DNA of 64,000 nt from an uncultured Clostridium sp. (lineage in GTDB: Bacteria > Bacillota > Clostridia > TANB77 > CAG-508), in assembly GCA_948465565.1 (NCBI GenBank), contig CAOJXR010000008.1, positions 778-64,777 on the forward strand, in the 5' to 3' direction. A model generated the notes under the pieces. It saw only the letters and a list, made by a program, of their open reading frames with translations. It was not told where the DNA came from and searched no databases. The translations under genes were made by a program, and so were the position numbers. The first letter of the stretch is position 1; every line of letters starts with the position of its first letter. Below, one piece after another: positions 4,708 to 60,423 of the stretch.

Positions 4708-6666
4708 TTATTCAAAATTTTCTTGATTGTATAAGTCTATTACAGTTCCTAAATCTCTTGCAAATTCTCTAAGCATTACCAATTTAATATTTATTTCTTT
4801 TCCTCTGCAATAGTCTTCTAGAACATTTTTTAATCTCTTCATAAACTTATACTCGCATTTTAGTATATCAGTATTTTTTCTTGCTCTATCTATTAACATT
4901 TCTTTTATTCTAACTATATCTTCATTGCTTGCACATGTAATTCTTTGGAACATTCTATATGCATCATAATATTTGAATATAGGAAATTCCATACATTCAC
5001 TATCAAATCTATCGTAGAACAATTCCATTTTAATTGGTATACATCTAAATATGTCATCTGCTTTGTCTTTATACATTTTTTCTTCAAGCTGATTATTTAA
5101 GTCTTCAAAGTGTTTTAATACTTCTTCTATTTCAGGCCCTGTTTCATTTATTCCTACTCTTGATAATTCTTCTTCAACATTATCACAGTATTGCGAATTT
5201 TTAACCGCTTTATCCATTCCTTCTAGGAACTTCCTTTTAGTTGCAATTAAATCATTTTGTATTAATCCTCTTTTTATAAAATAGCTGAAATATGAAAATA
5301 ATTTTACAATATCTATTAACTGTAATCTTCCTTCTTGTACATCTTCTAATACTTCTTGTATTACTCCTGGGAATTGCTCATCAGATATCTTCCAATATTC
5401 TTCTGTAAGTAAACGTTTATATCCAGGTAATTTTTCTGTGTCTATTGTATTTATGATTGCATCCATATCTTGTTTTAATGCTTTCATATCAAAAATTCTT
5501 GTACGTACATATATTTCAATAAATTTGAAGAATCTATATTCTGATTTAAAATTAAAATAATAGTTGTTATCGAATTCTTTGATATAGAATTGTCTATTAT
5601 CCATCAGAACTCTTGAGGATACAAGTATTGCCTTATATTCTTCATTACTTTGAATGTTTACAAATTTGTTTTTAGTTATTTTACCAGCTTTAATTTCAAA
5701 TGATACCGCTATTGTAAATATAAGCATTGTTTGTAATACTCTTCTATTAGTATTTGGATATGCTTTATTTACATTCTCAAAAATTTTCTTAAAGTCGTTT
5801 AATGCATGTTTTAAAATTCTTAAATTTCTTGTACCACTCTTATTAAATGTTGAAATAATAAGATTAGTGTTTTCTCTTAAAAATCTGATTAAGTCTGGAT
5901 TATTTTCAAATCTTAAAAGTAATCCATTTATTATGTAATTAAATTTAGGTGCATATTCGAAAGTTTCTCCAATAAGTTTCTCTTTTATTCTTTCATAATC
6001 ATTTGCATTATCAAAAACATATTCAATTTTGTCTCTTATCTTTTCAACCATTGGTTTCTCATCGCTTTTAGCTAAGTCATTTTGTTTGTCCAAAAGATAT
6101 GTTGCAATAAATGTTTTCATTTCAATATTTGAACTTTTGAATTTTGTTGCAAGTTCTTTCTCATTGCATATGATTATTGTTTTTATATGATCGTGCTCAA
6201 CAAAGTTGTTTATATATCCTAAGATATCTACAACATCAACATTGGCTCTTTCCAAATCATCAAAACACAATACTTTGTCATCTGTTGAGAAGAATTTTTC
6301 ATAATCAACTTTTTCTCCGTTTTTAGTTACTCCAAAGAAGTTTGCCATGTCTAGTCCAGTTTTTGCATATTCTGGAATAGTAGTTTGTCCATGTGCGCCC
6401 ATATATTTCTTTAAGTTTTTATCCATAAGCTGAGATGTTTCAATAAATATCTTTTTGCTTATTTCTTCTAGATTAGAAATTCCATACAAGGACATATATA
6501 TAGTTGTATAATTCTTTCCATTTAATTGCAATGATTCAATTTTGTTTTTTATTTTATGGTTCCAAAAATAGGTTTTTCCGCTTCCCCATTCACCATTTAT
6601 CATTACTGCATAATCTGTATAATCTGCTCTTACATAATCTAATATGCTTTCAACTAAATCTTCCAA
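4708..6666 (-). CDS. KAP family P-loop NTPase
   Basis: 652 aa. Walker A GEWGSGKTYFW near the N-terminus and Walker B-like VLCFDDLER, followed by a long helical C-terminal region. This is the typical KAP architecture. Confidence 0.8.
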   Translation of the reverse strand: MEDLVESILDYVRADYTDYAVMINGEWGSGKTYFWNHKIKNKIESLQLNGKNYTTIYMSLYGISNLEEISKKIFIETSQLMDKNLKKYMGAHGQTTIPEYAKTGLDMANFFGVTKNGEKVDYEKFFSTDDKVLCFDDLERANVDVVDILGYINNFVEHDHIKTIIICNEKELATKFKSSNIEMKTFIATYLLDKQNDLAKSDEKPMVEKIRDKIEYVFDNANDYERIKEKLIGETFEYAPKFNYIINGLLLRFENNPDLIRFLRENTNLIISTFNKSGTRNLRILKHALNDFKKIFENVNKAYPNTNRRVLQTMLIFTIAVSFEIKAGKITKNKFVNIQSNEEYKAILVSSRVLMDNRQFYIKEFDNNYYFNFKSEYRFFKFIEIYVRTRIFDMKALKQDMDAIINTIDTEKLPGYKRLLTEEYWKISDEQFPGVIQEVLEDVQEGRLQLIDIVKLFSYFSYFIKRGLIQNDLIATKRKFLEGMDKAVKNSQYCDNVEEELSRVGINETGPEIEEVLKHFEDLNNQLEEKMYKDKADDIFRCIPIKMELFYDRFDSECMEFPIFKYYDAYRMFQRITCASNEDIVRIKEMLIDRARKNTDILKCEYKFMKRLKNVLEDYCRGKEINIKLVMLREFARDLGTVIDLYNQENFE

Positions 6667-6755
6667 TTTTTACTCCTTTTCATTTTTTCGTTTGTAATTA
6701 CTTTTGCACAATAATTATAACATATTCAAAAATTTTTTTAAAAGGTATTTTTAGG

Positions 6756-7394
6756 TTAAATTTCTCTTTTGGCTAATACTAATACATCTATTTTTTCTGT
6801 TTCAGACTTTTTCAGTTCTTCTCTGCATGCCTTTATTGTGTTTCCCGTTGTATATATATCATCTAATAATAGTATTCTTTTATTTTTAAGGATTTTGAAA
6901 TTCTGTATCTTATATACGTCTTTTACATTTTCTATACGCTCTTTTTCACTTAGACTACTTTGTTTTTTATTCTGTTTTATTTTTACAATAGCATCTTTTA
7001 TATAATCTATTTTCAATTTGTTTTTAATACTTTCAGCAAGTACTTCTGTTTGATTATAACCTCTTATGTTTTTGTTTTCTATATACATTGGTACTGGAAT
7101 TATATAATCATATTGTTTTAATTCTTGTACAAATTCTTGATTTTTGCTAATTATTTCTGCAAATGTTTTTGCTAAATATGCTGATTCTTTAAATTTAAAT
7201 TTTAATATAAATTTTCTAATATTTTTTTCATATTTTCCTACACAAAATATATAAAAATCTTTTTCTAATATTTTTATATATTTGCATTCTTCTTTTAATT
7301 TGTAATAACATTTGGGGCAAATCCAAGTTTTATATAGTCTTTTACATATTCCACAACATGTTGGAAATATTATATTTAATATTTTTTCAATCAT
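6756..7394 (-). CDS. comFC: ComF family protein (phosphoribosyltransferase-fold, N-terminal Cys4 finger)
   Basis: CCGIC...CPKC zinc-finger-like N-terminus and the PRTase motif ILLLDDIYTTGNT. Confidence 0.8.
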   Translation of the reverse strand: MIEKILNIIFPTCCGICKRLYKTWICPKCYYKLKEECKYIKILEKDFYIFCVGKYEKNIRKFILKFKFKESAYLAKTFAEIISKNQEFVQELKQYDYIIPVPMYIENKNIRGYNQTEVLAESIKNKLKIDYIKDAIVKIKQNKKQSSLSEKERIENVKDVYKIQNFKILKNKRILLLDDIYTTGNTIKACREELKKSETEKIDVLVLAKREI

Positions 7395-26808: not shown

Positions 26809-27675
26809 TTATATCCATTCAGAAATTATTGAATCTGGTATTTCTAAATCTCCTCTGCCGTTTCCCATATCTATTTTATTTTCTTCACTTATTCCGTGGT
26901 AATCGCTTCCTCCAGAAATAAGAATTTTTCTATTCTTGCATATCTTTAAAAGTTTCATTGTTTGTTCTTTTGTAAAGTTAGAATAATAACATTCAATTCC
27001 ATCTATTTCAAAGTTCTCCAAAATATAATTTAATATTTTATCCGAATTATGTTTATATTCAAATATGTGTGGTATAAATACTTTTCCGTTTGCTCTTCTT
27101 ATTAATTTAATTATACTTTCTATGTCAGGAAGAATATCATTCATATCTATAAAGAAAGGACTTTCTGGGTCTGACATATATTTTCTATATAATACTAAGC
27201 TATCTTCCCATGCATCATTATCAATGAATTTTCTATTATATTCATCTTTTGTTATTGCTTCATGTAGATATTGTGATGCGTATTTATCTGGTGAATAACT
27301 TTCTATAAAGTCAGATGGTATTTTAATATCAAATTTTAATAATTTTTTGTATAGTCTTTTTATTTCTAAATAATTTCTATCTTCTGGCGAAAGATATATC
27401 CCTTTTAAACTTTCTTGCATTATTTCTGGATTTATTTTGTATCCTAATATTTCAATAGGTATATCTAAAGCTTTAGAATTAAGTTCTATTCCAGTAATTA
27501 TTTTTCCACCATAATATTCTTTAATATTGATTTGTTTCAATTCTTGATAAGCAGTACATGTATTATGGTCTGTAATAGAAATACATGTTAGTTTTTTCTT
27601 TTTAGCCTTTTTCAATATTTCTACTACACTATCTTTTCCATCAGAATGTGTTGAGTGCATATGTAAATCTATCAC
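26809..27675 (-). CDS. PHP-domain metal-dependent phosphoesterase (TrpH/YciV-like)
   Basis: MIDLHMHSTHSDG...ISITDHNT N-terminal His motif, later IPHIFEY and GGSDYHG. 288 aa. Confidence 0.8.
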   Translation of the reverse strand: MIDLHMHSTHSDGKDSVVEILKKAKKKKLTCISITDHNTCTAYQELKQINIKEYYGGKIITGIELNSKALDIPIEILGYKINPEIMQESLKGIYLSPEDRNYLEIKRLYKKLLKFDIKIPSDFIESYSPDKYASQYLHEAITKDEYNRKFIDNDAWEDSLVLYRKYMSDPESPFFIDMNDILPDIESIIKLIRRANGKVFIPHIFEYKHNSDKILNYILENFEIDGIECYYSNFTKEQTMKLLKICKNRKILISGGSDYHGISEENKIDMGNGRGDLEIPDSIISEWI

Positions 27676-27689
27676 TTATTCTCTCCATT

Positions 27690-28280
27690 TTAATTTCTAT
27701 TTAATATTTTATTTAATTCAACTTCTGCTTTTTTTATAAAACAGTCATTAAACTCTAACGGTAATCCCTCTGCCTTTAAACATTCTTTTATTTTTTCAAT
27801 TGTATCAAATTCTGGGTTGTTTTCTTCTGTTTCTGATTCAATCATTTTGTCCCCATTTTTTACATCTTTTGTAGTAATATTTTTTCCATCTTTTTGGTAT
27901 CCACAATCTTCCTCTGTAATGTTCATTATCTTTTTATATCCTATTGTGCTCATGAAATTCTCTGCATCATCACAATCAAGAACTTTTAATCTTGTGCTTT
28001 TTTGTTCAACAATTTCTCCCTTTTCGTTAAATTTTTTCATTTTATATGACATATCTCTTCTTGTCTCGTTTTTTGCTATATCTTCAACTTTTCTAATAAT
28101 TATTGCTTTTGATATAATATCTCTTGTAGATAATTTCTCAATTTCTAAATTCTCTGGTACCATAAATGCATCATATAAAATATAATGATCTGTTTGTTTA
28201 TAACCTTTTTCTTCTAATGTTTTTTTGAACTCGTTAATATCTCCTTTAATTCTTAGAGTTACTTCATTACTTTTCTTCAT
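27690..28280 (-). CDS. CYTH-like (triphosphate tunnel metalloenzyme / class IV cyclase-like) protein, divergent
   Basis: 196 aa. An alternating beta-strand pattern (EVTLRIK, IIIRKV, MSYKMK, STRLKV, KMIESE) resembles the CYTH barrel. However, the N-terminal ExExK signature is degenerate (E-x-T-x-R). Assignment is by motif pattern only. Confidence 0.4.
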   Translation of the reverse strand: MKKSNEVTLRIKGDINEFKKTLEEKGYKQTDHYILYDAFMVPENLEIEKLSTRDIISKAIIIRKVEDIAKNETRRDMSYKMKKFNEKGEIVEQKSTRLKVLDCDDAENFMSTIGYKKIMNITEEDCGYQKDGKNITTKDVKNGDKMIESETEENNPEFDTIEKIKECLKAEGLPLEFNDCFIKKAEVELNKILNRN

Positions 28281-28291
28281 ATTTATACCTC

Positions 28292-29173
28292 CTATATTTC
28301 AATGCCATCATATCGTAAAGCTCTTGTATTGTCAAACTTTAATGCCATTCTCTGAAGTGCTGGAATATCTATAGGACTTTCTGAATAGTCCATTATTATT
28401 CCATTACTAAATACTACATCTTTTGGGTAATTTCCTGAATTTTCTAAAGCAATTCTTTTTCCACTCGTTGATTTTAATCCTTGTAATGATTTTGATGAAT
28501 AATACTTTAGTATTCCTTTTGCAAATTCCATAAACTCATCTTTACTCATTCTGTTCTCTCTAACCCATGTTGCTTGTACACTCTGTTCATTTTCACCAGG
28601 CATTAAACTTTTAAACCTTATTAAGTCAATATTGGGATGTGCCTGTAATAATTCTTCTAAATCTTGTGCACAAGTGCTACTTTCTAAATTTCTTGTCAAT
28701 CCTATGTCAAACTTTATTTTCTTTGCTTTTTGAAACTCACTACTTTGAGTATAATCTCTTGCATATCCTAGTACTTCCATATCTTTTTGTGGATCTATTG
28801 CTACTCTTAGCATATCAAATTCCACATCGTCAACTAGTTGATTAAATAAATCAAACTTATCTTTTTCCCAAAATATATTTCCAGATGTATGTACTCTTAA
28901 TGTGTCAAATAAATCTTCGTGAAGTTTGATTATAGACGCTAACTCTTTTAATGTTTCTATCCCATATAATGATGGTTCTCCATTTCCACTTAATACAATT
29001 CTTTCAAATCTAATACCATTAATTCTCATTACATCTAAGATTCTTGAAAGTTCTGCAAAATGCTCTGCTTCTGAATCATTAAATTTTCTATTATTTTTTG
29101 CTATACAAAATGGACATGCCTTATCACATTTATAACTTGGTAAAACTATAGTTAAATTTCCTAGTCTATACAT
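28292..29173 (-). CDS. radical SAM enzyme (possibly viperin-like)
   Basis: C16-x3-C20-x2-C23 (YKCDKACPFCIAK) and a SAM-binding GGE-type motif, LSGNGEPSL. No SPASM or extra Cys cluster. 293 aa. C-terminal LIRFKSLMPGENE is reminiscent of viperin RWK...GEN. Confidence 0.85.
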   Translation of the reverse strand: MYRLGNLTIVLPSYKCDKACPFCIAKNNRKFNDSEAEHFAELSRILDVMRINGIRFERIVLSGNGEPSLYGIETLKELASIIKLHEDLFDTLRVHTSGNIFWEKDKFDLFNQLVDDVEFDMLRVAIDPQKDMEVLGYARDYTQSSEFQKAKKIKFDIGLTRNLESSTCAQDLEELLQAHPNIDLIRFKSLMPGENEQSVQATWVRENRMSKDEFMEFAKGILKYYSSKSLQGLKSTSGKRIALENSGNYPKDVVFSNGIIMDYSESPIDIPALQRMALKFDNTRALRYDGIEI

Positions 29174-29186
29174 TTTCTACTCCTTA

Positions 29187-29893
29187 TTATTTACTAACTT
29201 CTTCTTTTCCTTTTTTTCTATCTTGTTCTGTAATCGTATATTGCAAGATGTGTTGTTTTACAAGTTCTGTGGTCTCTTCTGTACTTCTTTCTGTTGTATC
29301 TATTATTTTAGTAAAAGGATGTGTTTTCCAAAATCCTGCTGCTGATTCTTTTTCATCTCTTAATCTTAATCTTTCTCGTGCTTCCGCTATTGAAGTTGCT
29401 TCCAATTCAGATTTTCTCTCTGCTCTTTTAAAAAAGGTTGCTTTCAAAAATATATGATTTGATATGTCATTACATACTGAAAATGGTCTTCTAGCATTAA
29501 GTAATACTGGGCTTTCTTGTCTTAATTATTTAACGAATCGCCAAAGCATCCACCTACATCAACAGTTAATTTGTTCATTTCTGGAGTATATAATTCGTCT
29601 TCTTTAAAAAAGTGATTCCTAATTGATATTTCGCAAACGCCATTTCTTTTTCTGTATCCTAAATTTAATTGTTGCATAAGTTCATCTATTTTCGACTGCT
29701 ACACAATTTGTTGTAAATCATTTATTGTCATTCTCCCACTTTTAATCAAGCAAAATGTTATCGGTCTAAAAAATGCTCCAAAATCAAAATAAGTTAGATT
29801 TGGAATTTCCTCTCGTAATTTCTCTGATACTGATGACTTTCCCGCTCCTGGCATTCCACTTATTGCTATTATTGAAAACTTTTTTTCTTTCAT
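29187..29893 (-). pseudogene. cytidylate kinase (Cmk)-like P-loop kinase, disrupted by an in-frame TAG and a frameshift
   Basis: N-terminal part has IAISGMPGAGKSS, then a TAG at 29699-29701. The same frame continues (QSKIDELMQQ...VDVGGCFGDSLNN) to a stop near 29525. The remainder (LRQESPVLLNARRPFSV...HIFLKATFFKRAERK...IIDTTERSTEETTELV) is in the -1 frame. Confidence 0.8.
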
Positions 29894-30812: not shown

Positions 30813-31643
30813 TTAAAAATTATCGAAATCTATTCCTAGTTTTTCAAAATAACTTTTTATTTTCGTCATATTTCTATATGTACCATTTTTTACTTCATGT
30901 TCAAATTCTTCATGTTCAAAATAGTCTTTTTCTAGCTCTTTATCAATATTATAAGGTACTCTTACAAATTGCAAAGAAAAACTATTACTATATTCCTTCT
31001 CTCCATAGTTTCCTTCTAATAAGCAATAATTTGCTTGTCTAATTTCTTCTATTTTACTATCTTTATCTGGGTTTCTAATCAAGCAAAAACTATTTCCAAC
31101 ACTTCCTGCATTTGCTATTGTTTTATTATATATTTTATCCATATATTGATGATGTATATGTCCATATATAACAACATCTGCTATTTTATCTGATATTGTT
31201 CTATCACTTGGTAAAAACATTTTATATTTATCTTCAATAGAATCTTGGCTAATCAATACTTTGTTATCAGCTTCTGGTGAAGAATGAAATATTCTTACTA
31301 GACTACCACTTAAATAAAACTCATATCAATATGGTAAATTACTTAGATATTCTCTTTCCTCTTCTGATAACATTCCATGTATTTTTTCCCATCTATTTCT
31401 TTCATATTCTGATTTACTTGCTATTTCTGATAGTGGTTCTGAAAAATGTCTATCACAATTTCCTCTTACAACTACATCACATTTTTGTTTTACAAGTTCA
31501 ATACATTCTTTGCTATGTGGTCCTTTTGCTATGGTGTCTCCTAAACAAAATATTTTTTCTACTCCTTTGTTTTTTGTATCATTTATGACTGCTTTTAGTG
31601 CTTCTAAATTCCCATGTACATCAGAAATTATTGCAATTTTCAT
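30813..31643 (-). pseudogene. calcineurin-like metallophosphoesterase interrupted by one in-frame TGA
   Basis: The N-terminal ORF (MKIAIISDVHGN, GDTIAKGP, GNCD) ends ...SNLPY-TGA at 31326-31328. The same frame continues YEFYLSGSLVRIFHSSP...VIYGHIHHQ. It would be a single 276-codon gene without the stop. Confidence 0.8.
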
Positions 31644-34775: not shown

Positions 34776-35708
34776 TTATCCTAGTAGTTTTACCTCTACA
34801 TTATTCATTTTATATTTTCCGTTTTCGTCTGTGACAAATTCTACAAGTGATTTGTCAAGAGTTGTCGCATTTTGACTTAAATCTTGTGTAAAATATATTT
34901 TCATGTTAGGTATTTCAAGTCCTTTTGTAACTATTATTTTGAAAATTTCTACCATGTGTTTGTCATCTTCTGCAACTAATATAAATTGTGGAGCTCTTTC
35001 ATATCCTGAATCAAATTGTATAAAGTTTTCATAGAAATCTTTATATAATCTCATTCTTTCTTCAAAATTTGTCTCCCAATCATCTTCTCTTCTTACAACT
35101 TCAAATAAGAAGTCTACTGAAATTCCTTTTTTGGTTAATCTAACTCCTGCGTTTGCCTTTACAATTTTTCCTGATTTTTTTGCATTTATAGCAGGTTTTA
35201 CTGTATATGTGTCAAAAGCTTGAACTTTTCTCATATATGCAACAATTATCTGGTTTCCTGCTAATCTTTTCTTTATCATTACTACTGGTTTTGTGTTGTC
35301 AGTTGGTTGCCATTTACATTCTATATTTCTAGAGTTTAATAAGTATTTACCCATTTTCTCTAAACAGTATACTCTATATATACATTTTCCATCTTCACTT
35401 GAAAAGTAGTATCTTGTTAATATTTTTGTTTTTATTAACTGTTCTAGTTTATTATTTAATTTGTCTTGTGATTTTATATCAACATTTCTATGCATTAAAA
35501 TTTGATATATTTGTCTTGATGTCATAAATTCAAACTCATTTACTAATTCTATTATTTTAAAATGGATTTCTGTTATATGACCAAGATTTATTCTATGAAT
35601 TATCTGGTTTATTGAAACATATCCATCTTTTCCATCAAAAGTTTTGATTTCTCCTTCCTTCATTGCAAACGGAGACACCGTTGTTTTAATTTTCTCATCT
35701 TCTACCAT
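34776..35708 (-). CDS. replication-relaxation (Replic_Relax)-like wHTH protein
   Basis: 310 aa. An N-terminal winged-helix-like segment (HFKIIELVNEFEFMTSRQIYQIL) is followed by a conserved-looking core. The assignment rests on architecture resemblance only. Confidence 0.45.
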   Translation of the reverse strand: MVEDEKIKTTVSPFAMKEGEIKTFDGKDGYVSINQIIHRINLGHITEIHFKIIELVNEFEFMTSRQIYQILMHRNVDIKSQDKLNNKLEQLIKTKILTRYYFSSEDGKCIYRVYCLEKMGKYLLNSRNIECKWQPTDNTKPVVMIKKRLAGNQIIVAYMRKVQAFDTYTVKPAINAKKSGKIVKANAGVRLTKKGISVDFLFEVVRREDDWETNFEERMRLYKDFYENFIQFDSGYERAPQFILVAEDDKHMVEIFKIIVTKGLEIPNMKIYFTQDLSQNATTLDKSLVEFVTDENGKYKMNNVEVKLLG

Positions 35709-37015: not shown

Positions 37016-37924
37016 CTAATTTTCTCCCTCTAATTTTTCTAATATCTCTGTAAAATATTCTGGTAATTCTGCTGTAAATTCAACTTCCTCGTTTGTTGAA
37101 GGATGCTTGAATTTTATTTTATATGCATGTAACATTTGTCCTTCTACGCCAAATTTATTTTTTCCGTTTGAATAGGCGTAATCCCCTACTATTGGATATC
37201 CAATTTCAGATAAGTGTACTCTTATTTGGTGTGTTCTTCCTGTTTCTATGTTTACTTCTAGTAAAGTATTTTCTTTATAACGTTTTAGGACTTTAATATG
37301 TGTTATTGCATTTTTTCCTGTTTTTGTAACTGCCATTTTTTTTCTGTCTTTTTGGCTTCTGCCTATTGGCATATCTATTGTCGCTTCATTTTCTTTAACA
37401 ATTCCTCTAACTAATGCTAAATATGTTTTTTTAGTTTTATGTTCTTTAATTTGATTGCTTATATTAATATGCGCTTTATCATTTTTGGCAACTATTATTA
37501 CACCTGATGTGTCTTTGTCTATTCTATGAACTATCCCTGGACGTATTTCTCCTCCAATTCCTGATAAAGAATCCTTACATCTTGCCATTACAGCATTTGC
37601 AAGTGTTCCTTCTGGATTTCCATTTCCAGGGTGAACTACCATTCCTTTTGCTTTATTTATTATTATAATATCATTATCTTCATAAATTACATTTAAGTCA
37701 ATCTCTTCTGGCTTTAATTTTGATTCTTTTGGCTTTTCTACTTCAAGTTCGATTATATCATTTTCTTTAACTTTATAAGATGGTTTTTCTATTTTTTTAT
37801 TTACTACTACCTTATTTTCTTCAATAAGTTTTTGAATCATCATTCTAGATAAATCTTTATCCAACTCTGCAAGTGCTTTATCTAGCCTTACTCCACTATT
37901 TTTTACTATATATTCTTTTTTCAT
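37016..37924 (-). CDS. pseudouridine synthase, RluA family (RluD-like)
   Basis: S4-like N-terminus and the catalytic HRIDKDTSGVIIVAKN. 302 aa. Confidence 0.9.
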   Translation of the reverse strand: MKKEYIVKNSGVRLDKALAELDKDLSRMMIQKLIEENKVVVNKKIEKPSYKVKENDIIELEVEKPKESKLKPEEIDLNVIYEDNDIIIINKAKGMVVHPGNGNPEGTLANAVMARCKDSLSGIGGEIRPGIVHRIDKDTSGVIIVAKNDKAHINISNQIKEHKTKKTYLALVRGIVKENEATIDMPIGRSQKDRKKMAVTKTGKNAITHIKVLKRYKENTLLEVNIETGRTHQIRVHLSEIGYPIVGDYAYSNGKNKFGVEGQMLHAYKIKFKHPSTNEEVEFTAELPEYFTEILEKLEGEN

Positions 37925-39585
37925 TCTTGGACTTCCTCTACTTTTTCATAAATAACAAATCTATCATCTTCTTTTTCTTCATCTGTTAGTGGATATATTT
38001 TTTTATAGTCTTTATTTGATTTTATTTTTTTGCTTAAGTTTGAATCTGAATATGTTATTACATGTGTTATATCATATCTCTCAAATGTATTTTTGTAATC
38101 ATCTGTGCCTGTTGCAATATTTTGCACATCCATAAATATGTCTTGTCCATCTTTGGCTTTTCCTGTTTTTGTATTATATTGTGGTGTATATAAATCACAT
38201 CTAGAGTCTATCATTACTGGAATTCCCTCATATATTAAGTAACTTCCATAATTGTATTCATTAAATAATCGTATATTTTTGTAATCTAAATTTTCTTTTA
38301 TCCATGCAGCTGCTTTTATTGGATAATCATGTTCATAGTAATATTTTTCGTGCAATTTTGGTTTTATATTTTGAATTGAAATTATTATTACTACTGTTGC
38401 AAGTAGAACTTTGCCATAGAAATTGTTTACTATTCCTATAACTTTATTTTGCAGTTTTGGCGCATATTTGTCAAATACTTCTCCAATTATTTTTGCTAAA
38501 ATTGGAGTACATATTATTACAAACATTGAGACTTGTCTTCTTGCTCCTAGCGCTAAATATAAAATTCCCATGTAATAAAATAAATGTTTTGCATCTATTT
38601 TTACATCAACAAAAGTTAATATAATTACAAATACAACAAAAAATGCAATAAATTCTTTATTTGTATTTAAGTCTAGTGGCAAGTGTTCATTTATTACTTC
38701 CATTGTATTTCCTGTTAACGTTTTATATAAATATGTGTATGGAGTTGTTGCTCCTGTCGGTGTTAATACTCCCATACATGCGCATATTAGCATTACTAAG
38801 AATAATTTTTTTACATTATCATTTCGTGGAACTCTAATTTTATATGGGTTCTTTTTTAGCTCTTCTCTTTTCTTTTTATTATCTTCTAAATCGGCATGTA
38901 GTTTTACTAATTTTTCTGAGTCTTTGTTCGTTCTTTTTAATATAAATATTTTTATTTTTAAAATTAAGTCAAAGTTTATTATGTCTAAAGATATAAAATA
39001 TTCTACTAGATATGGTACAAATAGTACAAAGAAAAATGGCCACACTGCCATGTGTAAGTTTACTATAAGTAGCGAAAATAGTACGAGTCCTACTGCATAT
39101 CTCTTTTTAGTATTTTCTAAGAATTTCTCTATTAAATATATTGTTAATATCATTAAAGAAAATGTTACTAACTGCGCTCTTGCTGCAATATATGGTTGCA
39201 TTAGATACATTCCTACGAATGTTACTATTGCTGATATTGGAGCATTTTTTGATATTTTATTTGATGTAAAATATATGCTCAATCCTAGTAAACTTGTTAA
39301 TACAATGCTTGATATGTATATTCCAAGCATTCCTCCAATTGAATATATTCCATACATTATTGTGTCATATAGCCAGTGTGGAAATGTGTAAGGGAGTTCA
39401 TTCCATGAAAATGGGTCTTCTGTTAGATTGCCGATTCCATTTTGTGATATATATTCTCCTACTTTTATTGTGTAAAAAGTATCGTTCTGTAAGCCTTTGG
39501 GAGCTATTCCAATGCAATATACAATTATTAATATTGCTATTATAATATGAAATTTATATCTTTTTGTCTTTTCTTCGCTTTTCAT
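37921..39585 (-). CDS. large polytopic membrane protein, possible GT-C type glycosyltransferase
   Basis: 554 aa with about 12 TM helices and a C-terminal soluble domain. No diagnostic motif recognised; the family call is tentative. Confidence 0.35.
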   Translation of the reverse strand: MKSEEKTKRYKFHIIIAILIIVYCIGIAPKGLQNDTFYTIKVGEYISQNGIGNLTEDPFSWNELPYTFPHWLYDTIMYGIYSIGGMLGIYISSIVLTSLLGLSIYFTSNKISKNAPISAIVTFVGMYLMQPYIAARAQLVTFSLMILTIYLIEKFLENTKKRYAVGLVLFSLLIVNLHMAVWPFFFVLFVPYLVEYFISLDIINFDLILKIKIFILKRTNKDSEKLVKLHADLEDNKKKREELKKNPYKIRVPRNDNVKKLFLVMLICACMGVLTPTGATTPYTYLYKTLTGNTMEVINEHLPLDLNTNKEFIAFFVVFVIILTFVDVKIDAKHLFYYMGILYLALGARRQVSMFVIICTPILAKIIGEVFDKYAPKLQNKVIGIVNNFYGKVLLATVVIIISIQNIKPKLHEKYYYEHDYPIKAAAWIKENLDYKNIRLFNEYNYGSYLIYEGIPVMIDSRCDLYTPQYNTKTGKAKDGQDIFMDVQNIATGTDDYKNTFERYDITHVITYSDSNLSKKIKSNKDYKKIYPLTDEEKEDDRFVIYEKVEEVQE

Positions 39586-54221: not shown

Positions 54222-54425
54222 ACAAAAAAACATTTCAATCCCGAATAGGACGAAATGTTTCGTGGTACCACCTAAATTTATTAATTAAATAATTAACCTC
54301 TTTATAGCTGTAACGGAGCAACCGGTTATATTTTTGTATAACATCTCCAAAGTGAAACTTCGATTTAGAATATATAATAAGCTCACAGCGTAACCACTTA
54401 TTTTCTCTTTCTATATTTTGCCTAA
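54222..54425 (-). promoter_or_regulatory. T-box leader (tRNA-Phe sensing) with terminator/antiterminator
   Basis: On the minus strand: an AGAGA box and GCTGTGAGC stem I elements, a UUC triplet in the expected specifier region, and the T-box sequence AGGTGGTACCACG. Then comes the terminator AAACATTTC...GAAATGTTTTTTT, immediately 5' of pheS. Confidence 0.85.
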
Positions 54426-54502
54426 ATCTACTTAGCTTTTTCATTGATTTTATTTATGACTTTTTTATTTTAACACCATTTTTAGTTTTTGGCAATAGTA
54501 AT

Positions 54503-60073: not shown

Positions 60074-60423
60074 TGGTGGAGATGAGGAGAGTCGAACTCC
60101 TGTCCAGAATTTTATTCCTATAAACTTCTCCGAGTGCAGTTTGTTATTATTATTCATTTCAAATATCATTAACAAACAAACGATTTTGAAATATATCTTC
60201 TAAACTCCCTCTATTAGCGAAGAAATAATAGATTCGTTTCCTACTAGTCGGCGCCTTATCTTAAGCCGTAGGTTGCTAAAGTAAGACGTTGCTGCAATTA
60301 GGCAGCAAATGCTAATTCGTTATTATCAGCGTTTATTTTTAATTTGTACCTTTTTAGGTGGCCAGGTACATCCACCACTCGCTATTTATAGTTCAAAAAA
60401 GCTGTCGAAACCTTTACATCCCC
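60074..60423 (-). ncRNA. ssrA: tmRNA (SsrA)
   Basis: The minus-strand 5' end is GGGGATGTAAAGGTTTCGACAGC. The 3' end is GGACAGGAGTTCGACTCTCCTCATCTCCACCA (T-arm, acceptor and CCA). An internal tag frame reads ...ADNNELAFAA-TAA. Length is about 350 nt. Confidence 0.95.

Follow-up and report, generated by a model that had tools for sequence, protein, structure and literature searches.

The 3'-deoxy-3',4'-didehydro-nucleoside triphosphates (ddhNTPs) made by viperins are natural chain terminators, and they have prompted drug leads as well as a view of immunity that is common to the domains of life. Viperins are radical S-adenosylmethionine (radical SAM) enzymes, and a nearby nucleotide kinase has been recorded for 12% of bacterial viperins (Shomar et al., bioRxiv 10.1101/2023.09.13.557418). 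Eukaryotic viperins with a fused 'triphosphatase or cyclase domain' have also been reported in the viperin literature. Ophion, a validated anti-jumbo-phage system of Gammaproteobacteria, combines a radical SAM enzyme (OpnA) with a PHP-domain protein (OpnB) and a phosphoribosyltransferase (PRTase; OpnC), and a nucleotide-modifying antiviral mechanism has been proposed for it (bioRxiv 10.1101/2025.09.30.679545). Here, we describe a four-gene cassette that encodes a Cmk-like kinase, a radical SAM enzyme, a CYTH-like protein and a PHP phosphoesterase. It was analysed in a 64,000-nucleotide stretch of DNA from an uncultured Clostridium sp. (assembly GCA_948465565.1, contig CAOJXR010000008.1, positions 778 to 64,777), which as a whole is called the window below. 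On balance, we lean towards reading the cassette as a horizontally mobile, modular, viperin-analogous nucleotide-modifying module that is built around an unclassified radical SAM family and is probably defensive.

All four genes lie on the minus strand in the order kinase, radical SAM enzyme, CYTH-like protein, PHP phosphoesterase, with spacers of 14, 11 and 13 nt counted from the PHP end:

29187-29893, minus strand: Cmk-like kinase pseudogene, broken into three open reading frames (ORFs) at 29699-29893, 29522-29677 and 29187-29447
28292-29173, minus strand: radical SAM enzyme, intact ORF of 293 aa
27690-28280, minus strand: CYTH-like protein, ORF of 196 aa
26809-27675, minus strand: PHP phosphoesterase, ORF of 288 aa

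The original prediction, made from the DNA letters alone, had described this packing and these coordinates, and had guessed the four families as a Cmk-like kinase, a small radical SAM enzyme without auxiliary cluster, a CYTH fold and a TrpH-type PHP protein. The layout and all four guesses were borne out, and so was its implication that the kinase is broken, by an in-frame TAG and a change of frame.

The 293-aa protein is assigned to the radical SAM superfamily by its cluster motif, a GGE-type SAM motif and a predicted partial TIM-barrel fold. Both the cluster motif CX3CX2C (C16/C20/C23) and the SAM motif SGNGEPS are invariant in the family; the sole other cysteine of the window protein, C168, is not conserved, so the enzyme is predicted to carry no auxiliary cluster. 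Curated families return sub-threshold generic matches only (TatD-linked radical SAM, NrdG, W-maturase and viperin). The score on Pfam Radical_SAM is 24 bits, under the gathering score of 29.5, and all NCBIfam matches are far under their cutoffs, the best being the TatD-linked radical SAM family at 33 bits. An AlphaFold (AF2) model from 46 homologs (pLDDT 90.2, pTM 0.89) was compared with the PDB by Foldseek, which returned probability 1.0 for many radical SAM structures and recovered generic barrels at about 15% identity, namely SuiB (TM 0.61), MoaA (0.57) and mouse viperin 6q2q (0.56, E 4e-6), followed by GDGT-MAS, BlsE and AbmM. A profile search of PDB sequences gave nothing better than E = 0.007. 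The 54 word-indexed homologs include none with a name, and an exhaustive HMMER scan of 1.84 billion representatives yielded 56 sequences at E <= 1e-30 and 84 at E <= 1e-10; fragments are frequent among these. The 40-56-bit tail of that scan consists of other unannotated radical SAM proteins of about 290 aa and contains only sub-threshold MoaA, viperin, W-maturase and TatD-linked matches. Clustering with a housekeeping family such as MoaA, QueE or the activases, which the original prediction had raised, was seen neither in the NCBIfam comparison nor in the HMMER scan. By sequence, the enzyme is best classed as the founder of a tiny, unannotated and previously unclassified family.

Relatives of the radical SAM enzyme occur in 35 of 185,579 species genomes, all of them metagenome-assembled genomes (MAGs). 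Their hosts are uncultured gut Clostridia, small-genome Bacilli (Coprosoma, Ventrenecus), 'Tenericutes', Oscillospiraceae and a bacterium of the candidate phyla radiation (CPR). In 50 loci the ORFs were called and classified by family hidden Markov models, with Pfam, NCBIfam and PADLOC as checks, and the gene set recurred in 16 or more loci at the species level, which lie in several unrelated surroundings. The arrangements, with MBL for a metallo-beta-lactamase-fold protein, pVip for prokaryotic viperin and locus numbers (L) as in our survey, are as follows:

Type A, Clostridia (the window, L001-3, L007-9, L016, L017): Cmk-like kinase, in some loci with a fused CYTH domain in front, then radical SAM enzyme, CYTH-like protein (196 aa) and PHP
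Type B, Bacilli (L004-6, L020-29): fusion of Cmk-like kinase and radical SAM enzyme, then MBL (RNase-Z/Apyc1-like) and CYTH-like protein (191 aa)
Type B subset, seven loci: canonical CYTH, pVip and LysR precede the kinase-radical SAM fusion
L030: Cmk-like kinase, radical SAM enzyme, MBL, CYTH-like protein and CYTH
Type C (L011/12/18, L019): Cmk-like kinase and radical SAM enzyme, separate or fused, then NUDIX and, where present, a CYTH-containing protein of 283 aa
Type D (L010, L050, L035, L046): radical SAM enzyme and canonical CYTH

Co-occurrence was counted over the species-level loci at E < 1e-50, of which there are 16. In 14 of them the kinase stands next to the radical SAM enzyme or is fused to it, the exceptions being L027, which ends with its contig, and L050, which has none; this agrees with the kinase-radical SAM pairing of the original prediction. 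A CYTH-fold protein is present in 15 of the 16 (the exception, L019, lies at a contig end), and a phosphohydrolase likewise in 15 (all except L050), its slot being taken by PHP, MBL or NUDIX in turn. Kinase-radical SAM fusions are found in many species, and such repeated gene fusion argues that the link between the two enzymes is functional; in L001, L016 and L017 the kinase is also fused to a canonical CYTH domain. The radical SAM enzyme is thus coupled to an adjacent or fused Cmk-like kinase, to at least one CYTH protein and to an interchangeable PHP, RNase-Z/Apyc1-like MBL or NUDIX protein, and all of its recurrent partners are nucleotide or phosphoanhydride enzymes. We predict with good confidence that its substrate is a mononucleotide.

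The surroundings of the cassette change from lineage to lineage: PSP1/ferredoxin and GerA genes flank it in L001-3, ClpB and an HMA ATPase in L007-9, and an alarmone synthetase (SAS) and rpsJ in the window, while in L004 it follows ileS and is accompanied by an ABC exporter. tRNA genes abut two of the cassettes. These differing neighbourhoods mean that the cassette moves between genomes. What the original prediction had treated as a four-gene module is therefore a conserved syntenic unit in related genomes and in different neighbourhoods, although the PHP gene is not a fixed part of it, since MBL or NUDIX can stand in its place. The prediction had further presented the CYTH and PHP partners as having no described counterpart in viperin systems. 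A full-text literature search for radical SAM enzymes with cytidylate kinase, CYTH or triphosphate tunnel did not turn up this architecture, and the cassette belongs to no described family, yet partial precedents exist in Ophion and in the triphosphatase/cyclase fusions of eukaryotic viperins.

Several observations concern loci at the edge of this survey. Distant members of the radical SAM family (<35% identity) have a nucleoside 2-deoxyribosyltransferase/SLOG-like domain as a fusion (P0196, P0198) or as a neighbour (L036), and an NrtR-like regulator and a nucleoside deoxyribosyltransferase-like gene lie beside such members. The NUDIX protein that takes the place of PHP in the Oscillospiraceae cassette (L011/L012/L018, 1907-2302) matches the PADLOC candidate-defence model PDC-S07 at 66.7 bits, and AAA_14/DUF4143 and SNF2/DUF3670 genes flank these loci. 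Carriage by phages or plasmids was considered and set aside: INPHARED and PLSDB hold no member, and IMG/VR holds only a distant subfamily (about 32% identity) with another partner. That subfamily, in the IMG/VR viral genomes (UViGs) L055, L056 and L058 (5736-7462) and in L037, L039-41 and L045, is paired with a class-II aminoacyl-tRNA-synthetase-like core of about 225 aa. Upstream of this pair lies a small ORF without a Pfam match that corresponds to the N-terminal extension of P0053, and on the predicted viral contigs the pair lies among GIY-YIG endonucleases.

As a statement of family membership, the label 'viperin-type' that the locus had been given does not hold. The window enzyme scores 21.5 bits on NCBIfam viperin_w_prok (NF038283; cutoff 180), has no match to TIGR04278 and reaches 19.3 and 18.7 bits on the PADLOC pVip models; its family overall scores 18-30 bits on the NCBIfam and PADLOC viperin models. 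In Foldseek, viperin does no better than SuiB or MoaA. A true pVip with its own CYTH gene lies one gene upstream of the kinase-radical SAM fusion in L021, L022, L024, L025, L026, L028 and L029 (about 4950-7170 each), and this neighbouring protein of 250 aa matches the PADLOC model 'viperins associated with kinases' full-length at 132 bits and viperin_w_prok at 129 bits. When the profile of the window family was aligned to these pVips, hhalign gave 94.5%, with 27% identity over 183 columns. Taken together, sub-threshold viperin scores and relatedness at the profile level make the window enzyme a remote relative in the viperin/MoaA neighbourhood rather than a viperin. The presence of a true pVip in the same locus argues for a different activity of the cassette enzyme, and the closeness of the two in seven Bacilli MAG loci lends support to the viperin analogy. 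These seven loci are also of interest in themselves, as they pair a pVip with a CYTH protein and hold two different radical SAM enzymes side by side.

The kinase appears to be Cmk-like and distinct from the housekeeping Cmk enzyme. Its N-terminal fragment in the window reaches 26.5 bits on Pfam Cytidylate_kin (gathering score 26) and contains the P-loop GMPGAGKS at aa 14-21 counted from the 29893 start, while the ortholog in L007 scores 43 bits on the cmk equivalog TIGR00017 (cutoff 135.55). On contigs that are 99.6-100% identical to the window, the kinase is an intact Cytidylate_kin protein of 247 aa, which aligns over its full length, if weakly (about 25 bits), to solved cytidylate kinases as its nearest structures. 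In the window copy, TGG has become an in-frame TAG at 29699-29701, and 25 nt are deleted at about 29525, which shifts the frame. The exact radical SAM protein of the window occurs on 311 contigs, two NCBI MAG assemblies among them, and alleles were read on the 24 longest, among which 8 distinct places were aligned base by base and similar contigs were counted with each place. All four genes are intact on 11 contigs, the kinase carries TGG to TAG alone on 10, and TAG, the 25-nt deletion and a 1-nt poly-A insertion occur together on 3 contigs and in the window. The kinase alleles of the species thus form a nested series. In a separate lineage (L052-54) the kinase is intact and the radical SAM gene has a nonsense codon at the near-invariant W203. 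Sequencing error was rejected as the source of the broken kinase, because independent assemblies share both the TAG and the nested 25-nt deletion, and the alleles are therefore real. The window kinase is a genuine, population-level, decaying pseudogene, and the module is dispensable in this species, as is typical of accessory or defence genes. In the window strain the module may at best run on the nucleotide pool of the cell itself and may be on its way to loss.

The two remaining proteins are characterised by fold and by profile. The 196-aa protein is not detected by Pfam CYTH, and its sole clue at the sequence level is NCBIfam cyaB at E = 0.0018; a Bacilli MAG member of the family matches cyaB full-length at E 1.5e-10. 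Its AF2 model (pLDDT 93.9) is matched by Foldseek to 2een, 1yem, 7ns9, 2fjt and 5a5y at E 1e-9 to 1e-7 with TM up to 0.76, structures that comprise archaeal triphosphate tunnel metalloenzymes (TTMs), a Yersinia class IV adenylyl cyclase, AtTTM3 and ThTPase. The model thus supports the CYTH, or eight-stranded triphosphate-tunnel, fold that had been predicted for this product. In place of ExExK, the family has an invariant N5-E6-x-T8-x-K/R10, which aligns to SEVEIK of the P. furiosus TTM with Thr for the second Glu. Many basic residues and, at the C-terminus, the G..IE.E motif are kept. The PHP protein matches Pfam PHP at 5e-10 and, full-length, NCBIfam RNase RNM (NF047791; 1.6e-22, 80 bits, cutoff 375) and pAp phosphatase / nucleoside 3',5'-bisphosphate phosphatase (NF041577; 1.1e-21, 77 bits, cutoff 400). 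Its nearest PDB structures are 3e0f (E 1.4e-13), 9etk, Cv1693 (2yb1) and the 5'-3' exoribonuclease 7ug9. By these scores it is closest to the TrpH/YciV (RNase AM / nucleoside 3',5'-bisphosphate phosphatase) type, under the equivalog thresholds.

Orthologs of the PHP and CYTH-like proteins (72% identity) were also found without radical SAM enzyme or kinase, on human-gut contigs of up to 549 kb (L013-L015, 4614-7702). The species is a very common one in the gut, and its protein P0075 is on 108 contigs. A 375-aa gene between the two was considered as a hidden partner and proved to encode an LPXTG surface protein; as a curiosity, a RelA_SpoT gene lies three genes from the pair. These two genes could serve a function of their own; they could also be what is left of the cassette.

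The boundaries of the cassette in the window are set by the following elements:

30012-29984, minus strand: sigma-70-like promoter TTGACA-17-TAATAT, upstream boundary of the cassette, directly before the hairpin
29973-29925, minus strand: strong hairpin followed by U7 (dG -22 to -25 kcal/mol, z -5.2), ending 33 nt before the kinase ATG
26760-26732, minus strand: perfect sigma-70 promoter (12/12 promoter match) of the rpsJ operon
26717-26632, minus strand: S10-Clostridia-like leader of the rpsJ operon (RF03136, 25.6 bits, gathering score 35.1, E=0.027)

The hairpin with its U7 tract is most simply the terminator of the SAS gene, and the space between it and the kinase start is too small for a promoter. 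In the window species the cassette may be transcribed by read-through or under attenuation; the hairpin is not conserved upstream of the cassettes of other species. Downstream, the promoter and the S10-like leader belong to the rpsJ operon, which makes the cassette a separate unit. The 64 kb contain no EF-Tu, EF-G or RpsL motif, so that, in agreement with the original prediction, the str operon does not precede rpsJ here. The neighbouring alarmone synthetase to which attention had been drawn is real (RelA_SpoT Pfam match of 118 bits), but its adjacency, like the site upstream of rpsJ, is specific to the window species, and a functional tie between the two was set aside as unsupported in other loci. 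A conserved leader or riboswitch was also sought as a clue to a ligand, and Rfam has no match upstream of the cassette in the window and 10 related loci.

Elsewhere in the window, the only two Rfam matches above gathering score are a tmRNA (60074-60423, minus strand, 174.5 bits) and a T-box leader (54243-54453, minus strand, 115.9 bits). Two genes upstream of the cassette, a calcineurin-like metallophosphoesterase gene (30813-31643, minus strand) is split into ORFs of 105 and 147 aa by a TAC to TAG change at 31327; as the gene is intact (276 aa) in L052 and in all eight places of the same species, it is a second, rarer pseudogene of the window strain. About 5 kb upstream of the cassette, a 310-aa protein (34776-35708, minus strand) with a borderline match to Replic_Relax (replication-relaxation; 25.6 bits, gathering score 25.3) lies among housekeeping genes and could be the remnant of an integrated element. 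For a 554-aa ORF (37921-39585, minus strand), which is flanked by pseudouridine synthase and exo/endonuclease genes, Pfam gives nothing at E <= 0.001.

A mechanism can be proposed from these parts. The kinase would raise the pool of a phosphorylated pyrimidine nucleotide, from which the radical SAM enzyme, with its SAM-binding cluster alone, would abstract a hydrogen atom and then rearrange or dehydrate the nucleotide by a viperin-like logic. The CYTH protein and the PHP, MBL or NUDIX protein would act on the phosphate groups of the product, either maturing it to another phosphorylation state or lessening self-poisoning. By analogy with viperin, the most likely role of the cassette would be antiviral or antagonistic, that is, the production of a nucleotide analogue. 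The sparse, patchy distribution and the independent inactivating alleles within one species are the behaviour of accessory genes and speak for this reading. A number of points weigh against it. The radical SAM enzyme falls short of every viperin family model and its predicted structure has no special affinity to viperin in Foldseek; when every protein of the window was screened with PADLOC, those of the cassette did not exceed 19 bits; and a tblastn search of INPHARED phages and PLSDB plasmids found no member of the family. The kinase in the window is dead, a strong terminator stands 33 nt upstream of the operon, and the missing second Glu of ExExK means that the chemistry of the CYTH-like protein may be atypical. 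Substrate, product and order of steps are proposals. Finally, the flanking genes are mostly housekeeping genes rather than defence islands, metabolic operons are the more usual setting for regulators of the LysR and NrtR types such as those of related loci, and the persistence of PHP and CYTH-like genes without radical SAM enzyme or kinase in a common gut species suggests that the two may serve a separate purpose.

The last of these points also count in favour of a regulated metabolic or salvage pathway, which would convert or detoxify a nucleoside or nucleotide, possibly derived from diet or host, in anaerobes with reduced genomes; the radical SAM enzyme would provide oxygen-independent chemistry, and the kinase and phosphohydrolases would shuttle phosphorylation states. 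LysR inside Type B loci, the NrtR-like regulator and deoxyribosyltransferase-like gene beside distant members, the housekeeping flanks, the separate PHP and CYTH-like pair and the occurrence of the cassette in Bacilli genomes of about 1.5 Mb with few accessory genes would all fit such a pathway. It is nevertheless unlikely, given the patchy distribution in 35 of 185,579 species, a bacterium that survives with a dead kinase on about half of its species' contigs and with a dead radical SAM enzyme in another lineage, the adjoining bona fide pVip and the lack of any transporter consistently linked to the cassette. A second-messenger module, in which CYTH would be a class-IV-type cyclase acting on a (modified) NTP and PHP or the Apyc1-like MBL the matching phosphodiesterase, is improbable. 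Class IV adenylate cyclase (cyaB) is the best profile match of the CYTH-like family, the Yersinia class IV cyclase is among its Foldseek matches, the MBL matches Pfam Anti-Pycsar_Apyc1 and, weakly, a cyclic-nucleotide phosphodiesterase model, and the PHP family includes cyclic-phosphate diesterases. Characterised CYTH proteins are, however, mostly triphosphatases and not cyclases, the ExExK motif has changed, some loci have in place of PHP or MBL a NUDIX protein, which does not cleave cyclic phosphodiesters, and the cassette has no linked effector or receptor domain.

Slightly less probable still is a unit for RNA-end processing, repair or modification, composed of a PHP 5'-3' exoribonuclease, a CYTH RNA triphosphatase, a polynucleotide kinase and an RNA-modifying radical SAM enzyme. 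The best matches of the PHP protein (RNase RNM and the exoribonuclease structure 7ug9), the inclusion of RNA triphosphatases in the CYTH superfamily and the position of the window locus next to the S10 operon would agree with it. That position is specific to the window species, though; the kinase is Cmk-like and unrelated to Pnk/Clp1 kinases, PHP can be replaced by NUDIX or MBL, and the substrates of fusion partners, for instance the nucleoside deoxyribosyltransferase-like domain, are mononucleotides. A plain divergent pVip that makes ddhNTPs with the help of accessory genes is very improbable: the kinase partnership is that of pVip and CMPK2-RSAD2, the enzyme is small with a single cluster and its profile is remotely related to those of pVips, but 21.5 bits compare with a cutoff of 180 on NF038283 and 19 bits in PADLOC with 132 for the real pVip, viperin is not preferred by Foldseek, and the coexistence of two radical SAM enzymes in Type B loci argues for different activities.

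If the cassette is indeed a mobile nucleotide-modifying module, it would add to the candidate systems of defence or antagonism one from never-cultured bacteria of the gut. A separate radical SAM family that is tied to the same kind of kinase, with tunnel and phosphoesterase partners that are obligatory, would also broaden what is known of the chemistry of enzymatic nucleotide analogues and would give CYTH proteins a defined pathway context. The natural alleles of one species (intact, kinase-dead and radical SAM-dead) provide ready-made controls. A bolder possibility, which we hold only tentatively and think doubtful, is that the radical SAM enzyme belongs to a second, viperin-independent nucleotide-modifying lineage, which together with the kinase and the variant tunnel enzyme would make an analogue chemically unlike ddhNTPs. 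The coexistence with a true pVip in one locus would imply two different products. Such a lineage would mean that uncultured Firmicutes of the gut make a new small molecule with antiviral or antimicrobial action.

Compared with known systems, the cassette shares features with several of them. The PHP protein resembles TrpH/YciV (RNase AM) and Cv1693-type PHP proteins, which are its best full-length profile and PDB matches; unlike the TrpH/YciV equivalogs, it scores about 80 bits where the cutoffs are 375-400, and its slot is interchangeable with MBL or NUDIX. With CYTH/TTM enzymes (SaTTM, PH1819, the class IV adenylyl cyclase YpAC-IV, ThTPase) the 196-aa family has in common the predicted eight-stranded tunnel (Foldseek TM of about 0.74), the basic residues and the C-terminal acidic motif, whereas E-x-T-x-K/R replaces the canonical ExExK; the kinase-CYTH fusions of sister loci mirror the kinase-TTM tandem of AtTTM1 (Arabidopsis TTM1, 7z67). 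As in pVip and RSAD2-CMPK2, a small single-cluster radical SAM enzyme is linked or fused to a CMP-kinase-like kinase, and as in viperin only three cysteines are conserved, consistent with the absence of an auxiliary cluster. The family differs from pVip in having CDKxCPFCIAKNN, SGNGEPS and HTSGNIF where pVip has NITSKCNRNCRYCF, TGGEPF and NTNLTT, and in being accompanied nearly always by a CYTH-fold partner and a PHP, MBL or NUDIX hydrolase.

Ophion was compared by means of the OphA and OphB sequences of the preprint (Table S1; 10.1101/2025.09.30.679545). With OphA as a single-sequence template, hhalign aligned the radical SAM family profile weakly, at a probability of 50.7% (E 1.6e-4, 22% identity, 227 columns), and OphA and the window enzyme have weak matches to TIGR04317 and TIGR04038 in common. 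OphB is a HisJ-type PHP protein (170 bits on NF005596) whereas the window PHP is of the TrpH type, and BLASTP aligned residues 1-38 only. The window cassette and all surveyed loci are without a PRTase; conversely, Ophion has neither the kinase nor the CYTH protein that the cassette carries, and it occurs in Gammaproteobacteria, the cassette in MAGs of Firmicutes. Membership of Ophion was rejected after this comparison, and the radical SAM enzyme is unlikely to be an OpnA. The design logic of the two is similar, for in both an operon pairs a radical SAM enzyme that is related to viperin but distinct from it with a PHP-domain protein and an enzyme of nucleotide metabolism.

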